A stretch of 43,171 nt of DNA, taken from a virus. Lineage: Duplodnaviria; Heunggongvirae; Uroviricota; Caudoviricetes. The notes beneath the pieces were generated by a model. It saw only the letters and a program-made list of their open reading frames with translations, did not search any database and had not been told where the DNA came from. The DNA lies in the IMG/VR virus record IMGVR_UViG_2939121850_000002, positions 1-43,171 of that record; one strand, 5' to 3'. The position numbers were made by a program, and so were the translations under genes. Below, one piece after another: positions 31,761-40,641 of this stretch. Each line of letters starts with the position of its first letter. Within the stretch, counting starts at the first letter, position 1.

Positions 31761-33146
31761 ATGGCTACGTGGCAACAGGGTATTAATTCTGGTGGTTTTC
31801 TGGCTGGCATCGGTACGCAAAATGAGAATGCGCCAAAGGCAAGCGACATTAACGCAACGCTTGGTCTGATCCGCGAAAACAATGAACTGGCTCGCTCAGG
31901 TGCAAATAACGTTGGCCTGACCGCGTTACGTGGTCTGGCTGGAGTTGCTGATATTTATAAGCAGGAACAGCAACAGAAAGCGATTAGTGCGTTCAATAAG
32001 GTTCACGCTGATGCATGGGCTTCTGGTGATCCATCGGGACTATTTAAGTTTGCCCAGGAAAATCCAGCGTTTGTTGCACAGGCACAACAGGCGTTTTCCG
32101 GTCTTAATGAGCAGCAACGCAACGATATGGGCGATTTAGCCATGAGAGCTAACGTCGCTCTTTCTCAGGGACCGGAAGCCTACAGTAAATTCATTACTGA
32201 CAACAAGGACAGGTTAAATCGCGTGGGTGCGAATGCTGACTGGATGATTCAGACAGGTATCCAGAATCCAGAGCAGCTATCACACATGCTGACTACTATG
32301 TCTCTCGGTGCACTTGGGCCAGAAAAGGCGTTTGCTGTTCAGGATAAGATGGTTGGTCGCCAGCAGGAGCAGCAAAGAATTAACGAAACCATTCGCAATA
32401 ATGACATGACGAATGCGAGGGCTATTAGGGGGCAAAACCTTTCCTATCAGTCTGCAATGACCGGACACGGACTTGCAGCAGAAAGACTGGCACTTGATAA
32501 GCAGAAATTCGGTTTTGAAGTACAACAGGCACAAAAAAAGGCCGAGGAACTTATTAATGCTGCGCCAAAATTATCAGTGAACATGGAAAAGGCTATAGAA
32601 AAATCAGCAGGTGATGCGGCAGCTAGTCGTAATGCTGCCGATTCAATGACAACGCTCGCTGACACGCTGGAGAGGGAGAAGCCAACTCCTGGTTTGTTCG
32701 GTAACGCTGAAAATATGTTCTCTAAGCTTACGGGGCAAGATAACTACCTCCGAGATATGCGGATTAGATTCAACCAACTAGCCAATGCGCAGGCAACCAA
32801 GCTTCTCCCTCCAGGCCCTGCATCAGATAAGGATATTGAGTTTGCAAGGAAAGGCATTCCAAGCGAAACGGATAATCCAATGGTCATGGCTCGATGGTTA
32901 AGGGGTATGGCAAAAATGGAAAGTAATAACGCGAAGTTCAACGAGTTTAGGTCAGAGTGGATGAGTGCAAACGGCAGCCCAGGACAATCTGATCGCAACC
33001 GAAACATCATGGGGATGGATGTTAAGAAGGGTGAATCATTGAACTCTGCGGCAAAACGTTTTCTTTCCTCAAGTTATGGCGATATCCAACCTCAACAGCA
33101 ATTGTCCGATGACGAATTAATTAGCAAATATCTCGGAGAGCAGTAA
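31761..33146 (+). CDS. Ejection protein (P22 gp20-type)
   Basis: 461 aa; synteny. Confidence 0.7.
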
Positions 33147-34963
33147 TGGCCTATAGTCGCGAACAGTTGATGACGGCGTTAAGGAATGCTGATGCTGCCG
33201 GCGATACTGAGGGAGCACGTCGCATTGCTCAGATGCTGTCTTCTGGTGATCAATCCACTCAAAACCAATCGCAGCCAGAAGAACAATCTCTGGTAGGAAA
33301 AGCTACTGACTGGCTCACTGGTGGTCAAAGTGCAGGGCAAATTGCAGAACAGGCAGGTCGTGGTCTGGTAAACATACCATTTGACGTATTGCAGGGTGGC
33401 GCAAGTCTGATTAATGCAATCAGCCAGGGGCTTGGCGGCCCCAAGGTTTTGGATGATGTCTATCGTCCAGTCGATCGACCGACAGACTCTTACGCACAAG
33501 CCGGTGAAACAATTGGTGGGTATTTAGTTCCAGGAGTTGGAACGGCAGGAAGCATGGCTATTGGCTCACTGGCAGAGGCCGCAAATCAGAAAGGCGATTT
33601 CGCACAAAATGCAGCTAAAAATGCCGGAGTTAACCTTGCCGCTCAGGGGGTTCTTTCCGCAGCAGCAAAGGGAATAGGGCGTGGAATTACTGCTGTTCGT
33701 GGCGAAATATCACCAGCAGATCAGCAATTGCTCAAGCGTGCCGCTGCGGCAGATGTACCAGTTATGACATCGGATGTAGTTCCTCCAAAAACAAAACTTG
33801 GCAATCAACTGCAGGGTTACTCAGAAGGAGTCATAGCTGGTACTGGACCAATGAGATCCGCACAGCAGGATGCTAGAACCAAGCTTGTTAATCGCTTCAC
33901 CGAAAAATACGGCGACTACGATCCATCTGTAGTCGTTGATAGTCTAAAGTCAGGCGTTGCAAGGGAAAAATCGTTAGCCAAGTCAAAACTAAACAACCTG
34001 TCAGGAAGAATGGTTGGAAAGCCAGTTGATACAAATGGCGCCATAAGAGCTATCGACGGAGCAGTAAACGAACTTGGGAAACTTAAAGGTGTTTCTGACA
34101 CCCAGACCATTTCTGCGCTTAATGATTATAAGAATGCCATTCAGGAGATAACAAATGGAGATGATGCCTTTGAGTTACTTGATAAGCTGAGAACTCAGTT
34201 CCGCATTGACGTAAAAGGCGATCGTACAGTTCTGCCATCAATGTCGCAAACAATGGTCGACAGGGTCTACAACTCGCTAACCAATAGCCTTAGTAAATCT
34301 ATAGCAAAAGGACTTAGCCCAAAAGATGCTTCAGCATGGAGAGCGGGAAAAGCTGATTATGCAAAAATGGCAACACATGCAACTCAAACGCGCCTTAAAA
34401 ACGTTCTAAACAAAGGAGATTTAACTCCAGAGGCTGTAAATACCATTGTGTATGGACAATATGGGTCAGATATAGCTCGATTGTACGGGAAACTCGATCA
34501 AAAAGGTAAAGACATGCTAAGGGCGGCATATATCAGCAAAATAGCTGACAAGGTAGGTGACAGCCCTCAGAAAATGATGACCGAGCTTGGCAAGCTGCAA
34601 AAACAAGCAAATGGTCAGGTGTTTAAAACTGTATTTGGTGGGAAGAACGGAAAAGAGATAGAGGGGATGTTATCTATTCTCGATGCTACCAAAAGAGCAT
34701 CTGAGGCTAATGTTGTGACGAAGACTGGCATGACACTCGCGCCTTTGGTAAGGGTTATTGGTAACCTAAAAACCGGAGGCGCGCTATTGGCTGGGGAAAC
34801 AGGGATTGGCCTTATGTCGAGGGTTTATGAAAGCCCTATGGCCAGGAATGCGTTCTTACGTCTGGCAAACACCAAAGCAGGAACGCCAGCCTATGAAAGA
34901 GCATTAAGTAACGCTGCAAATGCCATCAGACCGCTGCTTGCCACTGAGGCAACACAGCAGTGA
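33146..34963 (+). CDS. Ejection protein (P22 gp16-type)
   Basis: 605 aa; synteny. Confidence 0.7.
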   Translation: MAYSREQLMTALRNADAAGDTEGARRIAQMLSSGDQSTQNQSQPEEQSLVGKATDWLTGGQSAGQIAEQAGRGLVNIPFDVLQGGASLINAISQGLGGPKVLDDVYRPVDRPTDSYAQAGETIGGYLVPGVGTAGSMAIGSLAEAANQKGDFAQNAAKNAGVNLAAQGVLSAAAKGIGRGITAVRGEISPADQQLLKRAAAADVPVMTSDVVPPKTKLGNQLQGYSEGVIAGTGPMRSAQQDARTKLVNRFTEKYGDYDPSVVVDSLKSGVAREKSLAKSKLNNLSGRMVGKPVDTNGAIRAIDGAVNELGKLKGVSDTQTISALNDYKNAIQEITNGDDAFELLDKLRTQFRIDVKGDRTVLPSMSQTMVDRVYNSLTNSLSKSIAKGLSPKDASAWRAGKADYAKMATHATQTRLKNVLNKGDLTPEAVNTIVYGQYGSDIARLYGKLDQKGKDMLRAAYISKIADKVGDSPQKMMTELGKLQKQANGQVFKTVFGGKNGKEIEGMLSILDATKRASEANVVTKTGMTLAPLVRVIGNLKTGGALLAGETGIGLMSRVYESPMARNAFLRLANTKAGTPAYERALSNAANAIRPLLATEATQQ

Positions 34964-34980
34964 CTAAATGCCATGGATGG

Positions 34981-35169
34981 TTATTTCCTTAGCACATGAA
35001 ACAATGTTTGCTTTAATTCCACCCATACAATTATGACCACTATAGACAGACAAAAGAAACTGAATGCATTGGCATCACGATCGAAACCTTCTCCGGCACT
35101 AAATCCGTAAAAGGTCATAAAAAATATAAAAATTGCGCACTTTGCAACGTTTACAAATTTTTTCTTCAT
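34981..35169 (-). CDS. Small membrane protein (62 aa), convergent with gp16
   Basis: ATG at 35169 preceded by a strong AAGGAGG; hydrophobic segments; AT-rich. Confidence 0.45.
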   Translation of the reverse strand: MKKKFVNVAKCAIFIFFMTFYGFSAGEGFDRDANAFSFFCLSIVVIIVWVELKQTLFHVLRK

Positions 35170-35199
35170 ACCAACCTCCTTAGTTTTGCGCAGGATACC

Positions 35200-35565
35200 A
35201 TGAAAAAAGTTAACATTGGAAACGTACCAAAGATGCTCGTTCCGCTCTTTGAGAGCGGTACAATTGTGTTTTGTAGAGACTTTCCAGAATGGCAACGCCT
35301 GCATCAAAAACTTGGCGTTGACGTGCAGGACTCGGATGCCAACGGAGCGTCTCATACAATGAGCAGCGAGAATGGTGTTTTGCATGTGATAGGCGTGTTC
35401 AATGGCAAACTATCTACTATTGCCCATGAGTGCGCTCACATGGCATTCGATATCTGCTCAAGGGTAGGTGTTGATGTTGAACCAGGAAGAGCCAACGAGA
35501 CTTACTGCTACTTAATGAGCAGGCTTGTTGAGTTCTGCGAGCGACATATCAAAAAGCCGGAGTGA
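35200..35565 (+). CDS. Small HExxH-motif protein (putative minimal zinc metallopeptidase), 121 aa
   Basis: IAHECAHMAF; divergently arranged ~30 bp from the 62-aa membrane protein gene. Confidence 0.45.
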   Translation: MKKVNIGNVPKMLVPLFESGTIVFCRDFPEWQRLHQKLGVDVQDSDANGASHTMSSENGVLHVIGVFNGKLSTIAHECAHMAFDICSRVGVDVEPGRANETYCYLMSRLVEFCERHIKKPE

Positions 35566-35578
35566 CCCGGCTTGATTA

Positions 35579-35803
35579 TTACTTTTTTTGGTATGTTAAG
35601 AATGGCAAGTCGCCAGTGTACCCCAAGCGGAAAAGCTCCAATTGCTTATCTCTTATGGATAAAAAATAATCGTTTCTTGCCTTTTTAAGCCACAACCAGC
35701 CGATCATCAAGATGAATAATATTGATATTATTGGCATCGGGGAGATCAACACCACTCCGATGAATAATGACGCTAGCAGCACCGATAAAATAGCAGAAAT
35801 CAT
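35579..35803 (-). CDS. Small two-TM membrane protein (74 aa)
   Basis: Two hydrophobic helices; AT-rich. Confidence 0.45.
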   Translation of the reverse strand: MISAILSVLLASLFIGVVLISPMPIISILFILMIGWLWLKKARNDYFLSIRDKQLELFRLGYTGDLPFLTYQKK

Positions 35804-35828: not shown

Positions 35829-36014
35829 ATGACTATAGAAGAACGTCTGAACAACATTGAGTTAAACCAAACCCTGCTTGACCAGCGACTTTCAGAGCTT
35901 GAACTTAAAGATCTAGATGCGCAAATATCAGAAGCAGAAGCCAAGCTCTCCAGCTTAAACCACCGTAAGAAGCAAATCCGCGACAGAATTACTCGTGGAC
36001 GCGGAGGCTGTTAA
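35829..36014 (+). CDS. Small coiled-coil protein (61 aa)
   Basis: Heptad-like Leu/Glu pattern and basic C-terminus; weak RBS. Confidence 0.3.
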   Translation: MTIEERLNNIELNQTLLDQRLSELELKDLDAQISEAEAKLSSLNHRKKQIRDRITRGRGGC

Positions 36015-36091: not shown

Positions 36092-36628
36092 TCAAACAAC
36101 CCACCAGTTTGCCTGATTGGATACCAGCCTTGCAGTTTTTATGGAATTAATTATGCCATGCTCAAGAGCCTTGTTAGCATCCAAAATGGTCGAGTCTGCT
36201 ATCAGGGATGCCCACCTAATATGGGTTCCGATGTCGATATTGAACGTCTCAACGAAGCGATCAAGATCGTTATCGAGGCATTTCCCGTACTCTCTCAATC
36301 TGGCATGGTCGGCGGCTGGGGTGGCAAAGCCCCATAATAGAGGATGTAACAGGAATCTTGATAATGGGTTTGCGAAACGTTCTGAGCCAGCCAGGAAAAC
36401 GATATTAGCTATGGATTCAACATTGCTTATGTTGTGAGTTCTAACGGTAACAGGGAGTGACTTAAGAAAGTTATACGCAGTAAAACCAGCGGCAGTTTCC
36501 CCTCCCTGACTTGATATATGGATATTTAATTCAGTTGCGCCTTGAGATAATGCGGTGAGACAGTGGTTCTGAAGTTGCCCAACAGTGGCAGTGTTAACGG
36601 GGCATAAGAAATGAATTGTGTGCAGCAT
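36092..36628 (-). CDS. ClpP-fold (Clp/crotonase-type) serine peptidase-like protein, translationally coupled to mnt
   Basis: Aligns by eye to the ClpP catalytic core (Ser in ...NVESIANIVFLAGSER..., His in ...FLLHPL...); its start shares one nucleotide with the mnt stop (TAATG). Confidence 0.55.
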   Translation of the reverse strand: MLHTIHFLCPVNTATVGQLQNHCLTALSQGATELNIHISSQGGETAAGFTAYNFLKSLPVTVRTHNISNVESIANIVFLAGSERFANPLSRFLLHPLLWGFATPAADHARLREYGKCLDNDLDRFVETFNIDIGTHIRWASLIADSTILDANKALEHGIINSIKTARLVSNQANWWVV

Positions 36629-36864
36629 TATTTTTCATCCTTACCATACATGGTTTTCAGCGTCTCAAGCAGCGCATCCCTGAATTTGTCAGCCTCTTTC
36701 TGAGCAAATTCATTGCTATTAAGCGATCTACCACAAACAGCATCTTCGATAATCTGTATTATTTCAGCATTCATGGAACGCTTGTTATGTTGCGCCCTGG
36801 CTTTAACCTTTTCCTTTAACTCTTTGGAAATCCTAATATTTATTTGCGGCTCTTCGCGTGACAT
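36628..36864 (-). CDS. mnt: Mnt-like ribbon-helix-helix repressor (immI maintenance repressor)
   Basis: RHH N-terminus (INIRISKELKEKVKARAQHNKRSMNAEIIQIIEDAV) as in P22 Mnt; divergent from arc-ant. Confidence 0.7.
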   Translation of the reverse strand: MSREEPQINIRISKELKEKVKARAQHNKRSMNAEIIQIIEDAVCGRSLNSNEFAQKEADKFRDALLETLKTMYGKDEK

Positions 36865-36935: not shown

Positions 36936-36952
36936 AATTGATTGGAGGTAAT

Positions 36953-37126
36953 ATGATAGTCAAGTCAGACGCACCAAAGTACCCTTTGCGCATCCCATTA
37001 GAGGTTAAGTTAGCAATCGAGAAGTCAGCGAAAGAAAATGGTCGCTCAATAAATACCGAGATGGTAATGCGGTTGGTGGATAGTTTAAGGCGGGATAGTT
37101 CTAAAGGTAATCTAGCAAAAAGTTGA
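36953..37126 (+). CDS. arc: Arc-like ribbon-helix-helix repressor
   Basis: 57 aa with PLRIPLEVKLAIEKSAKENGRSINTEMVMRLVDSL, similar to P22 Arc. Confidence 0.7.
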   Translation: MIVKSDAPKYPLRIPLEVKLAIEKSAKENGRSINTEMVMRLVDSLRRDSSKGNLAKS

Positions 37127-37205
37127 AGCCCCAACTGCGGTAACAGTCAGGGCTTCGGTTGTCGGTAAATCCGTGGAGAAAAACCAACATGAATAGTATA
37201 GCAAT
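37112..37205 (-). ncRNA. Candidate sar-like antisense RNA across the arc-ant junction
   Basis: Minus-strand intrinsic terminator (7-bp stem GAAGCCC/GGGCTTC, then TTTTT on the minus strand) in the arc-ant intergenic region, where P22 sar RNA terminates. 5' end and promoter not determined. Confidence 0.3.
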
Positions 37206-38091
37206 TTTAGAAGCAGTGAACACCTCTTACGTGCCTTTCAATGGTCAGCAAATTATCACCGCCATGGCTGCCGGAGTTGCATATGTTGCGATGAAACCAA
37301 TCGTTGAAAACCTCGGAATGAGTTGGGGTACTCAGCAACAAAAACTTATGAAACAACTAGATAAGTTCAACTGTATTCATATGAATATGGTTGCTGCTGA
37401 TGGAAAGCTTCGTAAGCTACTCTGCCTTCCTTTGAAGAAGTTAAATGGATGGCTGTTCAGCATCAACCCTGAGAAAGTTCGTGCTGACATCCGTGATAAA
37501 CTGATTCAGTACCAGGAAGAATGCTTTACTGTGCTGCATGACTACTGGACGAAGGGAAAGGCAGAAAATGCACGTAAGAAAACATCTGTTGATGACAGGA
37601 CTCCGCTTCGTGATGCTGTAAATATGCTAGTCAGCAAAAAGCATCTAATGTACCCAGAAGCTTATGCAATGATTCATCAGCGTTTCAATGTGGAAAGTAT
37701 TGAAGAGCTTGATGCATCTCAGATACCGCAAGCCGTAGAGTACATCCACAGGGTAGTGCTTGAAGGCGAGTTAATCGGCAAACAAGAGAAGAAAACCAAC
37801 GAGCTTTCTGCAAAAGAAGCAAACAGCCTTGTATGGTTATGGGATTATGCCAACCGTTCACAGGCATTATTCCGCGAACTGTATCCGGCATTAAAACAAA
37901 TTCAATCGAACTATTCCGGCAGATGCTACGACTACGGTCATGAGTTCTCGTATGTTATCGGAATGGCGAGAGACGTTTTAATCAATCACACACGAGATAT
38001 TGATATCAATGAGCCAGACGGACCAACGAATCTTTCCGCATGGATGAGACTTAAGAATAAAGAATTACCTCCTTCAGTACATAACTACTGA
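37189..38091 (+). CDS. ant: Antirepressor Ant
   Basis: [52 protein letters not shown]... matches P22 Ant as recalled; GGAGAA RBS. Confidence 0.8.
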
Positions 38092-38190: not shown

Positions 38191-40641
38191 ATGACAGATT
38201 CAATAAATGCCAATGTTGTAGTGAGTATGCCTTCGCAACTCTTCACTATGGCTCGTTCTTTTAAAGCCGTAGCCAATGGCAAAATTTATATCGGTAAAAT
38301 TGACACTGACCCGGTAAATACTGAAAACCAGATTCCGGTTTATGTAGAGAACGAAGACGGCTCTCACGTTCCTGTTTCTCAACCAATCATCATTAACGCT
38401 GCTGGTTATCCTGTATATAACGGACAGATTGCTAAGTTCGTTACTGTACAAGGGCATTCTATGGCTGTGTACGATTCATATGGATCACAGCAGTTCTATT
38501 TCCCTAATGTGCTGAAGTACGATCCAGATCAGTTTTCATATTTGCTGAAAAGTGATGATGGCTATAAGTATATAGGAGAATGCAAAGATATATCTACATT
38601 GAGAACAATTGAACCAAGTTATGATGGACAGGTTATAAGACTGAGGGGATATTACTCTGACAGCTATTCAGGAGGTGGAAGGTTTTTCCGTAGTGTTAAT
38701 CCTGATGGATTGACAGATAACGGAGGAACGATAATTTTCACATCAGAAGGAAATGTATGGAAATCAGATGATATATATAATGTTATGCTTGAGGATTTCG
38801 GAGCTAAAGATGGCGCTGACAACACCGAAGCATTTCATAAAGCAATTAACTCACCAGCAAAAAAAATCACAACAAATATAAAAGAGTTGATACTAACAAA
38901 CAATATTGTAATTACACGCGGCGACCTGGCAATTGATATGCCTGATACGGAGATAATATGGAATGCTCCGGAAGGGCATATTCCTGATAGAAGTGGATCT
39001 ACAAATCCAAGTAACTATCGTTTTCCTGGCATTCTAGCATTTCGCGGCACTGCTGGAGATATAATAGACTCTTTTACTCTAACAAATAGAATATCAAAAG
39101 GAGATACAACATATTGGTGTACGAACAACTCTCTTTTTGAGAATAGACAGTGGGTTATTATGTCATCGGATGTTGGCGGCGGAACCGTAGGTAGAGAAAT
39201 AAATGTAATGACACAAGTGCAGGGCAGTGGTGGAGCAATAACTCAATTGCGAGTTGATTATAAAACAGGCTGGCATCTTGATGTCGGAAGGGTATTGACA
39301 TATAGAAATGTAACCCCAATAGAAAATGTAAGAATTGCTTTTAAAGGCGTAAAATGGAATCAAAACATAACAGATGCTTCAGGTAGTGGCGATGGATTTG
39401 CCAGTCAACAATCATGCGCACTTGTGTCCCTTGAATACGTAAATAACGCTGACATTTGTCTCGGGTATGGATTTAATCACCCTTACCCAATGGTTGTAAC
39501 TGCCATGGTCAGGAATGTTTTTGTTCATGATACGGAAACAAATTTCCCAAGAGTTCCAGGGTCCGATCATGTTGTTCAATTCAATAACGCATATGAATGC
39601 CACGCAAGAAGATTACGCAATATTTCAGGCAGGCACGTAGTTGATTTTAGTGGTGCAAGTTATTGCTCTGTAAGAGATTGCGGAGAAACAGGAACAAGAA
39701 ATGGTGCATTTACTACGCACGGTATGTTTGAGCACAATTTGCGATTTGATAATAATTATGGTCTTTTAAGCATTGCAAACAGTGGTGAATATTATGGTGA
39801 GTCAGCAGATAATATAACTGTAACCCATCATTTCGGAGATTATTTAATTGCAACTTCAAAAGTTACCAACCTTAACATATTGCATGCAATATTTACAAAA
39901 GGTGCAAGATTAAACAATGATGCCGTCACATTGATTGATGTTACTATTGGAGAAAACTCAACTGATGCCGATAGAGGGCTTAGATTTACCCAAAGCTCTA
40001 ATGTTTATGGGCGTGGGGCAAAAATATTCGGCTGTGACATTGTGTTAAACAAGCAAGCAGGGAATGCTCTGCCTGATTCTCTTAACCAAAGGGTGAAAAT
40101 CGAATCGACATATATCAGGAATTCAAACGCTTCATATTATGGTGGTAGTTGGATTGAACTAATTAATTGTGATGTTTCAGGATCAGGTTCAAGTCTTGAG
40201 AATGTTGTTGCTGCAACGCGGTTTAGCATGCTGTCCGGATCATTATCTAATACTGGTTTTATTTTTCAAGGCCCATCAGAGCAAATCGTAAAAATACATG
40301 ACGTTTCACAGTCTGGAACAGGAGCGTCAGGGCTTAATAGTCATTTTATTTTAAATAAAGATGAGGCAGGAAGTGGACCAATAACAATGTCATATAAAAA
40401 TAATCAATGTATATTGAGCGGAGAAACATGCGCATTCAAAATAAATAATGCTTCAGGAGCATTCAGAGTAAACTCTACAGGGAATACGTTTCAAGGTGGA
40501 AAAATAGAGTTTCAGAAATCTATTACATCAGGTGGCAGTTACTTAAATCACACTGGAAACGTAGAGCGTGGCGTTAGTAGAGTCAACGAGCCAGAAAATA
40601 CTCCATATATAGTAACAACAGGGAATATGATAATTCCCTGA
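38191..40641 (+). CDS. Tailspike (P22 gp9-type head-binding domain with a divergent AT-rich receptor-binding domain)
   Basis: First ~115 aa ([43 protein letters not shown]...[12 protein letters not shown]...[10 protein letters not shown]) match the P22 gp9 head-binding domain; the remaining ~700 aa are AT-rich and unrecognised. Confidence 0.85.

Follow-up and report, generated by a model that had tools for sequence, protein, structure and literature searches.

What does a small open reading frame (ORF) with an HExxH motif, lying back to back with a membrane protein gene in a P22-like prophage, encode, and on what would its product act? The question is raised by the window, by which we mean the whole stretch of 43,171 nucleotides that was analysed (IMG/VR record IMGVR_UViG_2939121850_000002), a P22-like (Lederbergvirus-type) Escherichia coli prophage. 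Its gene-16 homologue (33146-34963) and its antirepressor and tailspike genes (37159-38091 and 38191-40641) enclose the variable 'ant moron' of P22-like phages (PMC2629481), and there lies an ORF of 121 amino acids (aa). A preliminary description had proposed that this ORF encodes a putative minimal zinc metallopeptidase, divergently paired with a membrane protein gene, which could act as a repressor protease of the ImmA/IrrE type or as part of a defence module. The observations from which it started, namely a HECAH motif in the 121-aa ORF and, about 30 bp away, a divergent gene for a 62-aa membrane protein with a strong ribosome-binding site (RBS), were all confirmed. We report here that the ORF is the already named gene hkcC of P22-like phages, and we consider it on balance probable, from residue conservation and structure modelling, that HkcC is an active minimal zincin peptidase with a target other than a repressor.

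Identity of the ORF

The window protein is 100% identical to HkcC of phage HK620 and to the product of the P22 ORF located between sieA and orf59a, and across 35167-35587 the DNA shows 98.8-99.3% identity to that of the two phages. The gene occupies the same slot in all three, between gene 16 and the immI/tailspike region, and ends at the same bidirectional terminator, a stem-loop that is annotated as such in HK620 and as t-mnt in P22. The neighbours differ: the divergent gene encodes the 62-aa protein with two transmembrane (TM) segments in the window and is hkcB in HK620 and sieA in P22, whereas the convergent gene encodes a 74-aa membrane protein in the window and is orf59a/hkcD in P22/HK620.

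Although P22 and HK620 are classic models, hkcC has carried the label 'unknown function' for 25 years; it is listed in this way in PMC2629481 and likewise in PMC4837284, and a literature search returned no paper characterising hkcC, nor a characterised phage protease of its family. The protein matches the profile phrog_1365 ('unknown function') over its full length (E = 1.4e-39, residues 1-121 against profile positions 3-120 of 127), and the same profile is matched by all 111 relatives aligned below. Two lantibiotic matches of the window protein (E = 0.14 and 0.025) were dismissed as noise from the HEC motif. What is new here is the catalytic-site hypothesis, the definition of a large family without a Pfam entry and the rejection of the repressor-protease and gene-pair readings; the ORF itself had a name.

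A large family with four invariant residues

A word-indexed search returned 32 relatives, down to 43% identity, and in the 21 that were aligned HECAH and several other positions were invariant. An exhaustive profile search over 1.84 billion cluster representatives yielded 551 proteins at E <= 1e-3, of which 152 reached E <= 1e-10; with few exceptions these are single-domain proteins of 105-140 aa. The hkcC family holds at least 551 clusters at 50% identity, for which Pfam has no entry. Ten longer relatives that we inspected showed no informative domain fusions. The HE..H signature was kept in 141 of the 145 new family representatives listed, and the four exceptions were three frameshifted or truncated sequences and one genuine HKxxH variant.

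In a broad alignment of 111 members at full length, with 23-77% identity to the query, invariance is confined to four columns, H76, E77, H80 and E100; G49, G90, Y104 and L105 are conserved in at least 90%. Poor conservation of the HExxH motif among homologues had been named at the outset as one of two findings that would speak against a zincin, and it is clearly contradicted by the invariance of H76, E77 and H80 in all 111 members. Over this range of divergence the homologues hold a length of about 120 aa, which shows that hkcC is a real gene. The motif alone does not exceed chance in the window, where the six-frame translation holds two HExxH occurrences against about 2.9 expected, so its significance rests on conservation in the family; the occurrence in hkcC is the only one within an open frame of at least 60 codons.

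The fourth invariant residue, E100, stands 20 residues after H80 in an 'NE' context and is the first residue of a predicted helix (100-116). An invariant Glu at this distance from the second His, in this context, is what we take to be the thermolysin-type gluzincin pattern. Gluzincins are the thermolysin-type enzymes with HExxH plus Glu (M4, M3 and M9), and 'minigluzincins' have about 100 residues; both are among the closest known systems to HkcC. The invariance of E77 favours catalysis over a merely structural metal site. Four invariant residues of active-site type give a concrete and easily testable biochemical hypothesis in a genetically tractable phage.

Predicted structure and fold comparisons

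With a shallow alignment, AlphaFold2 reached a predicted local distance difference test score (pLDDT) of 83, and only two of the five models were good. When the 111-sequence alignment was supplied, all five models scored between 92.8 and 94.3, the best having a pLDDT of 94.3 and a predicted template modelling score (pTM) of 0.87. The confidently predicted elements follow each other as strand 11-13, strand 21-25, helix 28-37, a hairpin of strands 49-56 and 59-66, helix 71-88 and helix 100-116, and HExxH (76-80) sits in helix 71-88 at a pLDDT of about 98. In the model, this beta-beta-alpha-beta-beta-alpha(HExxH)-alpha(E100) order is that of a minimal zincin, with a sheet carrying an edge strand, a backing helix, an active-site helix and a 'glutamate helix'.

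Foldseek was queried with the first AlphaFold2 model. Against the PDB it returned noise only, with no significant match to a solved peptidase; against the viral predicted structures of BFVD it gave 17 matches at E <= 1e-3, mostly to unnamed small phage proteins, the few named ones among the matches listed being labelled SprT-like, PolyVal metallopeptidase, Metalloprotease and IrrE. The broad family profile, compared with PDB sequences, gave 11 matches at E <= 10, of which the top nine are HExxH regions of zincins, none of them significant; the best was myroilysin, at a non-significant E = 0.07. The SprT-like family of Pfam (PF10263) matched 30 of the 111 members below threshold (best E 1e-4), over the HExxH helix, and two such matches scored 12.6 and 15.7 bits against a gathering score of 25.6 and covered little beyond that helix. 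We read the hkcC family as a zincin-like family of its own, neither SprT-like nor M78. The predicted topology fits the zincin fold, whose absence was the second finding named in the preliminary description as speaking against a zincin, but matches to solved zincins are only weak. As for the zinc metallopeptidase itself, the conserved helix-borne HExxH, a candidate third ligand in E100 and the predicted topology stand on its side.

Distribution, genomic context and expression

The gene was found in 130 of 5426 complete E. coli genomes (RefSeq, annotated as hypothetical protein), and many P22-like phages lack it. In some prophages, as in that of E. coli YY76-1, a 139-aa lipoprotein gene (locus L011, 2813-3232) takes its place, and only the first ~17 nt of hkcC are left beside the conserved intergenic block; this replacement marks a recombination joint just inside the 5' end of hkcC. 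The patchy distribution and the replacement in YY76-1 indicate that hkcC is a dispensable accessory gene. No paralogue of hkcC was found elsewhere in the window. Seven of the P22-like phage records listed show two matching places each, which could be a second copy of hkcC.

More distant relatives place the family among late genes. Within the late operon, those of epsilon34 (gp70), ST64T and L (Orf129), 38-40% identical, have the lysis genes on one side and dec/terS on the other; the one in mEp044 lies between the lysozyme gene and the terminase region, and another between lysis-region genes and terS. Relatives in metagenomic phages are found two genes upstream of TerL or directly after it, two more (in a P22-like contig and a Pectobacterium prophage) end 2-4 nt upstream of the small terminase gene, and a 62% identical copy in a siphovirus-type prophage of Klebsiella oxytoca is located between tail genes and the tape-measure gene. 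All these relatives are co-oriented with the late genes. In three loci (L093 6001-6863, L094 6001-7392 and L003 3001-3794) a distant relative lies 2-4 nt upstream of the next late gene, be it the small terminase gene or dec, or overlaps it. Gaps and overlaps of this kind suggest translational coupling with packaging and head genes.

The hkcC gene has the same orientation as genes 16 and 9, and a scan of the plus strand between gene 16 and hkcC found neither a terminator nor a sigma-70-like promoter. Upstream of the 30-bp intergenic block everything is replaced from phage to phage, and the block, with its RBS, is the only upstream sequence conserved. Because no conserved promoter of its own is present, the orientation is that of the late genes and the relatives lie in late operons, hkcC would most likely be made by late-operon read-through out of gene 16.

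Proposed function of HkcC

Taking the residue pattern and the model together, HkcC would be a soluble, stand-alone zinc endopeptidase; a cytoplasmic location is suggested by the lack of any hydrophobic segment (maximum of 1.07 in a 19-residue Kyte-Doolittle window) and by an isoelectric point (pI) of 6.3. One zinc ion would be held by H76 and H80, both on the active-site helix, and by E100, with which the following helix begins. E77 would serve as the general base, and the hairpin of strands 49-56 and 59-66, which precedes the active-site helix, would provide an edge strand along which the peptide substrate is aligned. The gene, oriented with the late operon, would be translated from gene-16 read-through. 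Judged from the comparative context, the putative target may be a host or competitor protein, or the enzyme may act late in infection or during DNA packaging; that context does not suggest cleavage of the repressors Mnt, Arc or CI of the phage itself.

Several points weigh against this proposal. Scans of the window protein against Pfam, NCBIfam and PADLOC gave no meaningful match; the protein has no match among PDB sequences, and profiles built from the close and then from the broad alignment found nothing significant there. The residue four positions past the putative Glu ligand is Tyr, where the classical gluzincin ExxxD motif has Asp. Late read-through, too, is a mode of expression that we infer. 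With these points counted, the label of minimal zinc metallopeptidase, as a prediction from conserved sequence, is well supported.

A wider form of the proposal appears rather doubtful to us: phrog_1365 would be a widespread but so far unrecognised class of minimal late-made phage metallopeptidases, possibly injected into the next cell with the ejection proteins encoded just upstream and cleaving a specific host protein, or else hkcC and orf59a would form a module of enzyme and partner. In a counter-defence role, an example of a target would be an immune sensor that responds to terminase, portal or capsid proteins. If this were true, P22, a model phage, would possess a protease for counter-defence or host takeover that nobody has studied. 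Once defined, the target of HkcC would add a proteolytic accessory function to the lambdoid late programme; at present the result is an improved annotation and not a new principle. Small HExxH ORFs are common in phages, and several structural neighbours are already labelled 'SprT-like' or 'metallopeptidase'.

In the Klebsiella oxytoca prophage (CP130257.1; L095 6001-6563) the 62% identical hkcC is followed by a convergent homologue of orf59a, as in P22 (L002 2534-3092). This homologue is close by eye to P22 orf59a and has a weak YjzC-like match (E = 0.006). Since this siphovirus-type prophage is otherwise unrelated, hkcC and orf59a may travel as a two-gene module.

Alternative explanations

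That HkcC is an ImmA/IrrE-like protease, cleaving Mnt, Arc or C2/CI and so controlling antirepressor expression or prophage induction, would agree with its small size, its place on a mobile element and its HExxH with a Glu as third ligand, as in the M78 family. Two Arc-family genes stand ~1.1-1.4 kb from hkcC, which is itself part of the immI ('ant moron') region, the Klebsiella oxytoca homologue has Arc-family genes ~5 kb downstream, and a few BFVD neighbours are labelled IrrE, with poor scores (ranks 35, 47 and 50). However, Peptidase_M78 (PF06114) gave no match to the window protein at E <= 1 and does not appear in the list of families that the 111 members matched, a value of E = 0.099 for one longer relative being noise. 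The nearest repressor-type genes are those of the Arc family (36628-36864 and 36938-37126), more than 1 kb away, and between them and hkcC stand the bidirectional terminator and the genes for the 74-aa membrane protein, a 61-aa coiled-coil protein and a ClpP-like protein; with a terminator and two or three unrelated genes in between, co-transcription is not to be expected. Known substrates of ImmA are helix-turn-helix repressors (Xre/CI-type) encoded beside the protease, and no such cognate repressor adjoins hkcC; Arc and Mnt, by contrast, belong to the ribbon-helix-helix proteins. In HK620, hkcC is kept even though only remnants of mnt and ant survive, and in epsilon34, ST64T, L, mEp044 and four further metagenomic or genomic phages the homologue lies between lysis and terminase genes with no repressor nearby. 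The repressor-protease role suggested in the preliminary description is therefore highly improbable. Should any protease of the region pair with a repressor, the gene order would point to the ClpP-like one. Late-gene company also bears on the idea that HkcC serves defence or abortive infection as a protease expressed from the prophage, which would be produced in the lysogen together with the divergent membrane gene of superinfection-exclusion type and would cleave an essential host protein when another phage infects. Lit is a precedent of a prophage zinc protease, the accessory and patchy distribution of hkcC would suit such a role, and the moron region does hold exclusion genes expressed in the lysogen, such as sieA in P22 (PMC10883804). 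Nevertheless, no conserved or recognisable promoter reads into hkcC, and most of the distant homologues are embedded, co-oriented and with the gaps or overlaps described, in late structural and packaging operons, an arrangement typical of lytic-cycle expression and not of morons expressed in the lysogen. PADLOC-DB gave no match for the window protein and three sporadic, unrelated ones among the 111 members, so that the defence module once suggested found no support, and we regard a Lit-like protease as quite unlikely.

The frequent position of homologues directly upstream of the small terminase gene would also fit a DNA-associated protease of the SprT/Spartan/ArdC kind, which would clear DNA-bound or cross-linked proteins before packaging or destroy DNA-targeting host defences. 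Small HExxH domains of the SprT-like (PF10263) and PolyVal/ArdC types are common in phages, and the weak Pfam matches in 30 of the 111 members and the BFVD labels 'SprT-like' and 'PolyVal metallopeptidase' point the same way. Those matches stay below the gathering score and take in the HExxH helix only (profile positions ~62-79 or 63-96 of 108), however, and the window protein itself has none. The third zinc ligand of SprT, Spartan and Wss1 is a His, and the 111 members have no conserved third His but the invariant Glu. HkcC is, moreover, slightly acidic, with no obvious DNA-binding extension or zinc ribbon, and longer relatives bring no informative fused domain; a function of this type is improbable. 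It is also unlikely, if a shade less so, that HkcC is no enzyme at all, its metal site being structural or a binding surface, as in a small inhibitor or adaptor, or the ORF being kept mainly for the promoter of the divergent gene in its 5' end. The missing match to any solved peptidase and the overlap of the leftward promoter with the first hkcC codons speak for it. Yet a purely structural site has no need of the HExxH glutamate, and E77, like the three ligand positions, does not vary down to 23% identity, the natural HKxxH variant being one rare exception. The embedded promoter does not explain the conservation either, because homologues without a divergent neighbour keep the full-length ORF. 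An active minimal zincin peptidase with a non-repressor target is thus the reading that we retain.

A divergent slot for interchangeable envelope-protein genes

The 62-aa product has two hydrophobic segments (maximum of 2.16 in a 19-residue Kyte-Doolittle window) and matches phrog_21338 at E = 5e-45. Its gene is not bound to hkcC. We surveyed the neighbours in 80 IMG/VR contigs with hkcC at >=99% identity, and the leftward gene beside these near-identical copies belongs to at least 12 unrelated families (Table 1), and each of their products opens with a TM segment, a lipobox or a signal peptide. The intergenic block and the first hkcC codons are conserved across the window, other E. coli prophages, P22 and HK620, and the leftward coding sequence is swapped exactly from its start codon. 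Slot and equivalents (34981-35199 on the minus strand of the window; loci L013-L092) are hypervariable and share, in the constant 30-bp block, the RBS AAGGAGGTTGGT-NTG. The 62-aa gene occurs in 88 of the 5426 E. coli genomes and in at least one of them, YY76-1, adjoins the lipoprotein gene by which hkcC is replaced. A dedicated, operon-like pair of hkcC and the 62-aa gene was rejected, and a functional pairing is not supported: the linkage is physical and not functional, and the 62-aa gene is independently swapped cargo, an exchangeable occupant of the slot and not a dedicated partner.

In the P22-pbi record the promoter PsieA is annotated on the first 30 nt of hkcC, corresponding to 35200-35230 of the window, and it follows that the 5' end of hkcC may double as the promoter region of this cargo slot. 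A consensus promoter scan of the window did not detect the leftward equivalent, which is placed by homology. A minus-strand ORF of 134 aa (34981-35385, start at 35385) was discarded as the true leftward gene, being merely an upstream extension of the frame, with the conserved start and RBS at 35169.

Since all its occupants encode envelope-targeted products, the genes of the slot are candidates for superinfection-exclusion proteins. With its constant RBS/promoter block and at least 12 swappable envelope genes, the slot offers a ready catalogue of such candidates, perhaps as useful as the main finding.

Features of the locus and neighbouring genes

The features of the locus and the occupants of the slot are collected in Table 1.

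Table 1. Features of the hkcC locus in window coordinates, and leftward genes found beside hkcC in the 80 contigs surveyed.
Feature	Position	Strand	Remarks
hkcC coding sequence, minimal HExxH...E zincin-like protein, phrog_1365	35200-35565	+	ATG start, 121 aa plus stop
HExxH codons H76-E77-C78-A79-H80 (HECAH, within IAHECAHMAF)	35425-35439	+	predicted helix 71-88
E100 codon, putative third zinc ligand, motif (A)NET(Y/F)CYL	35497-35499	+	starts predicted helix 100-116
Shine-Dalgarno sequence of hkcC, AGGA (modest)	35192-35195	+	4 nt before ATG; part of the conserved intergenic block (P22, HK620, E. coli prophages)
Divergent intergenic block, exactly 30 bp, holding the RBSs of both genes	35170-35199	.	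near-invariant in the window, HK620, P22, LR883012 and YY76-1
Gene for the 62-aa two-TM protein (phrog_21338)	34981-35169	-	ATG; RBS AAGGAGG at 35175-35181, 5-nt spacer
Probable promoter of the divergent gene, reading leftward (counterpart of PsieA in P22)	35200-35254	-	in the first hkcC codons; by homology only
Bidirectional stem-loop terminator over the hkcC stop codon (t-mnt / tORF59A of P22, HK620)	35554-35573	both	terminator scan, both strands
Leftward gene: 161-aa lipoprotein			17/80 contigs
Leftward gene: SieA			12/80 contigs
Leftward gene: 129-aa secreted protein			11/80 contigs
Leftward gene: 109-aa TM/coiled-coil protein			10/80 contigs
Leftward gene: 75-aa two-TM protein			8/80 contigs
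Leftward gene: HkcB-like protein			6/80 contigs
Leftward gene: 106-aa TM protein			5/80 contigs
Leftward gene: 62-aa protein of the window			3/80 contigs
Leftward genes: 68-aa, 149-aa and 99-aa proteins, 11-aa remnant			2/80 contigs each

On the other side of hkcC, the position of P22 mnt is occupied in the window by two minus-strand genes, one for a 78-aa ribbon-helix-helix protein of the Arc/Mnt type (36628-36864), the other for the 178-aa ClpP-like protein (36092-36628), the former overlapping the start of the latter by 1 nt. The ClpP-like product matches the Pfam family CLP_protease at E = 4e-12 and is much shorter than the head-maturation proteases that it resembles. Nearer to hkcC, orf59a is replaced by the gene for the 74-aa membrane protein (35579-35803, minus strand), a variant seen in ~10 of the 80 related contigs. 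It is followed by the ORF for the 61-aa predicted coiled-coil protein (35829-36014, plus strand), which matches phrog_7586 (unknown function; E = 2e-43) and, weakly, PbeC of PADLOC (E = 6e-4), and which is conserved beside hkcC in several E. coli prophages.
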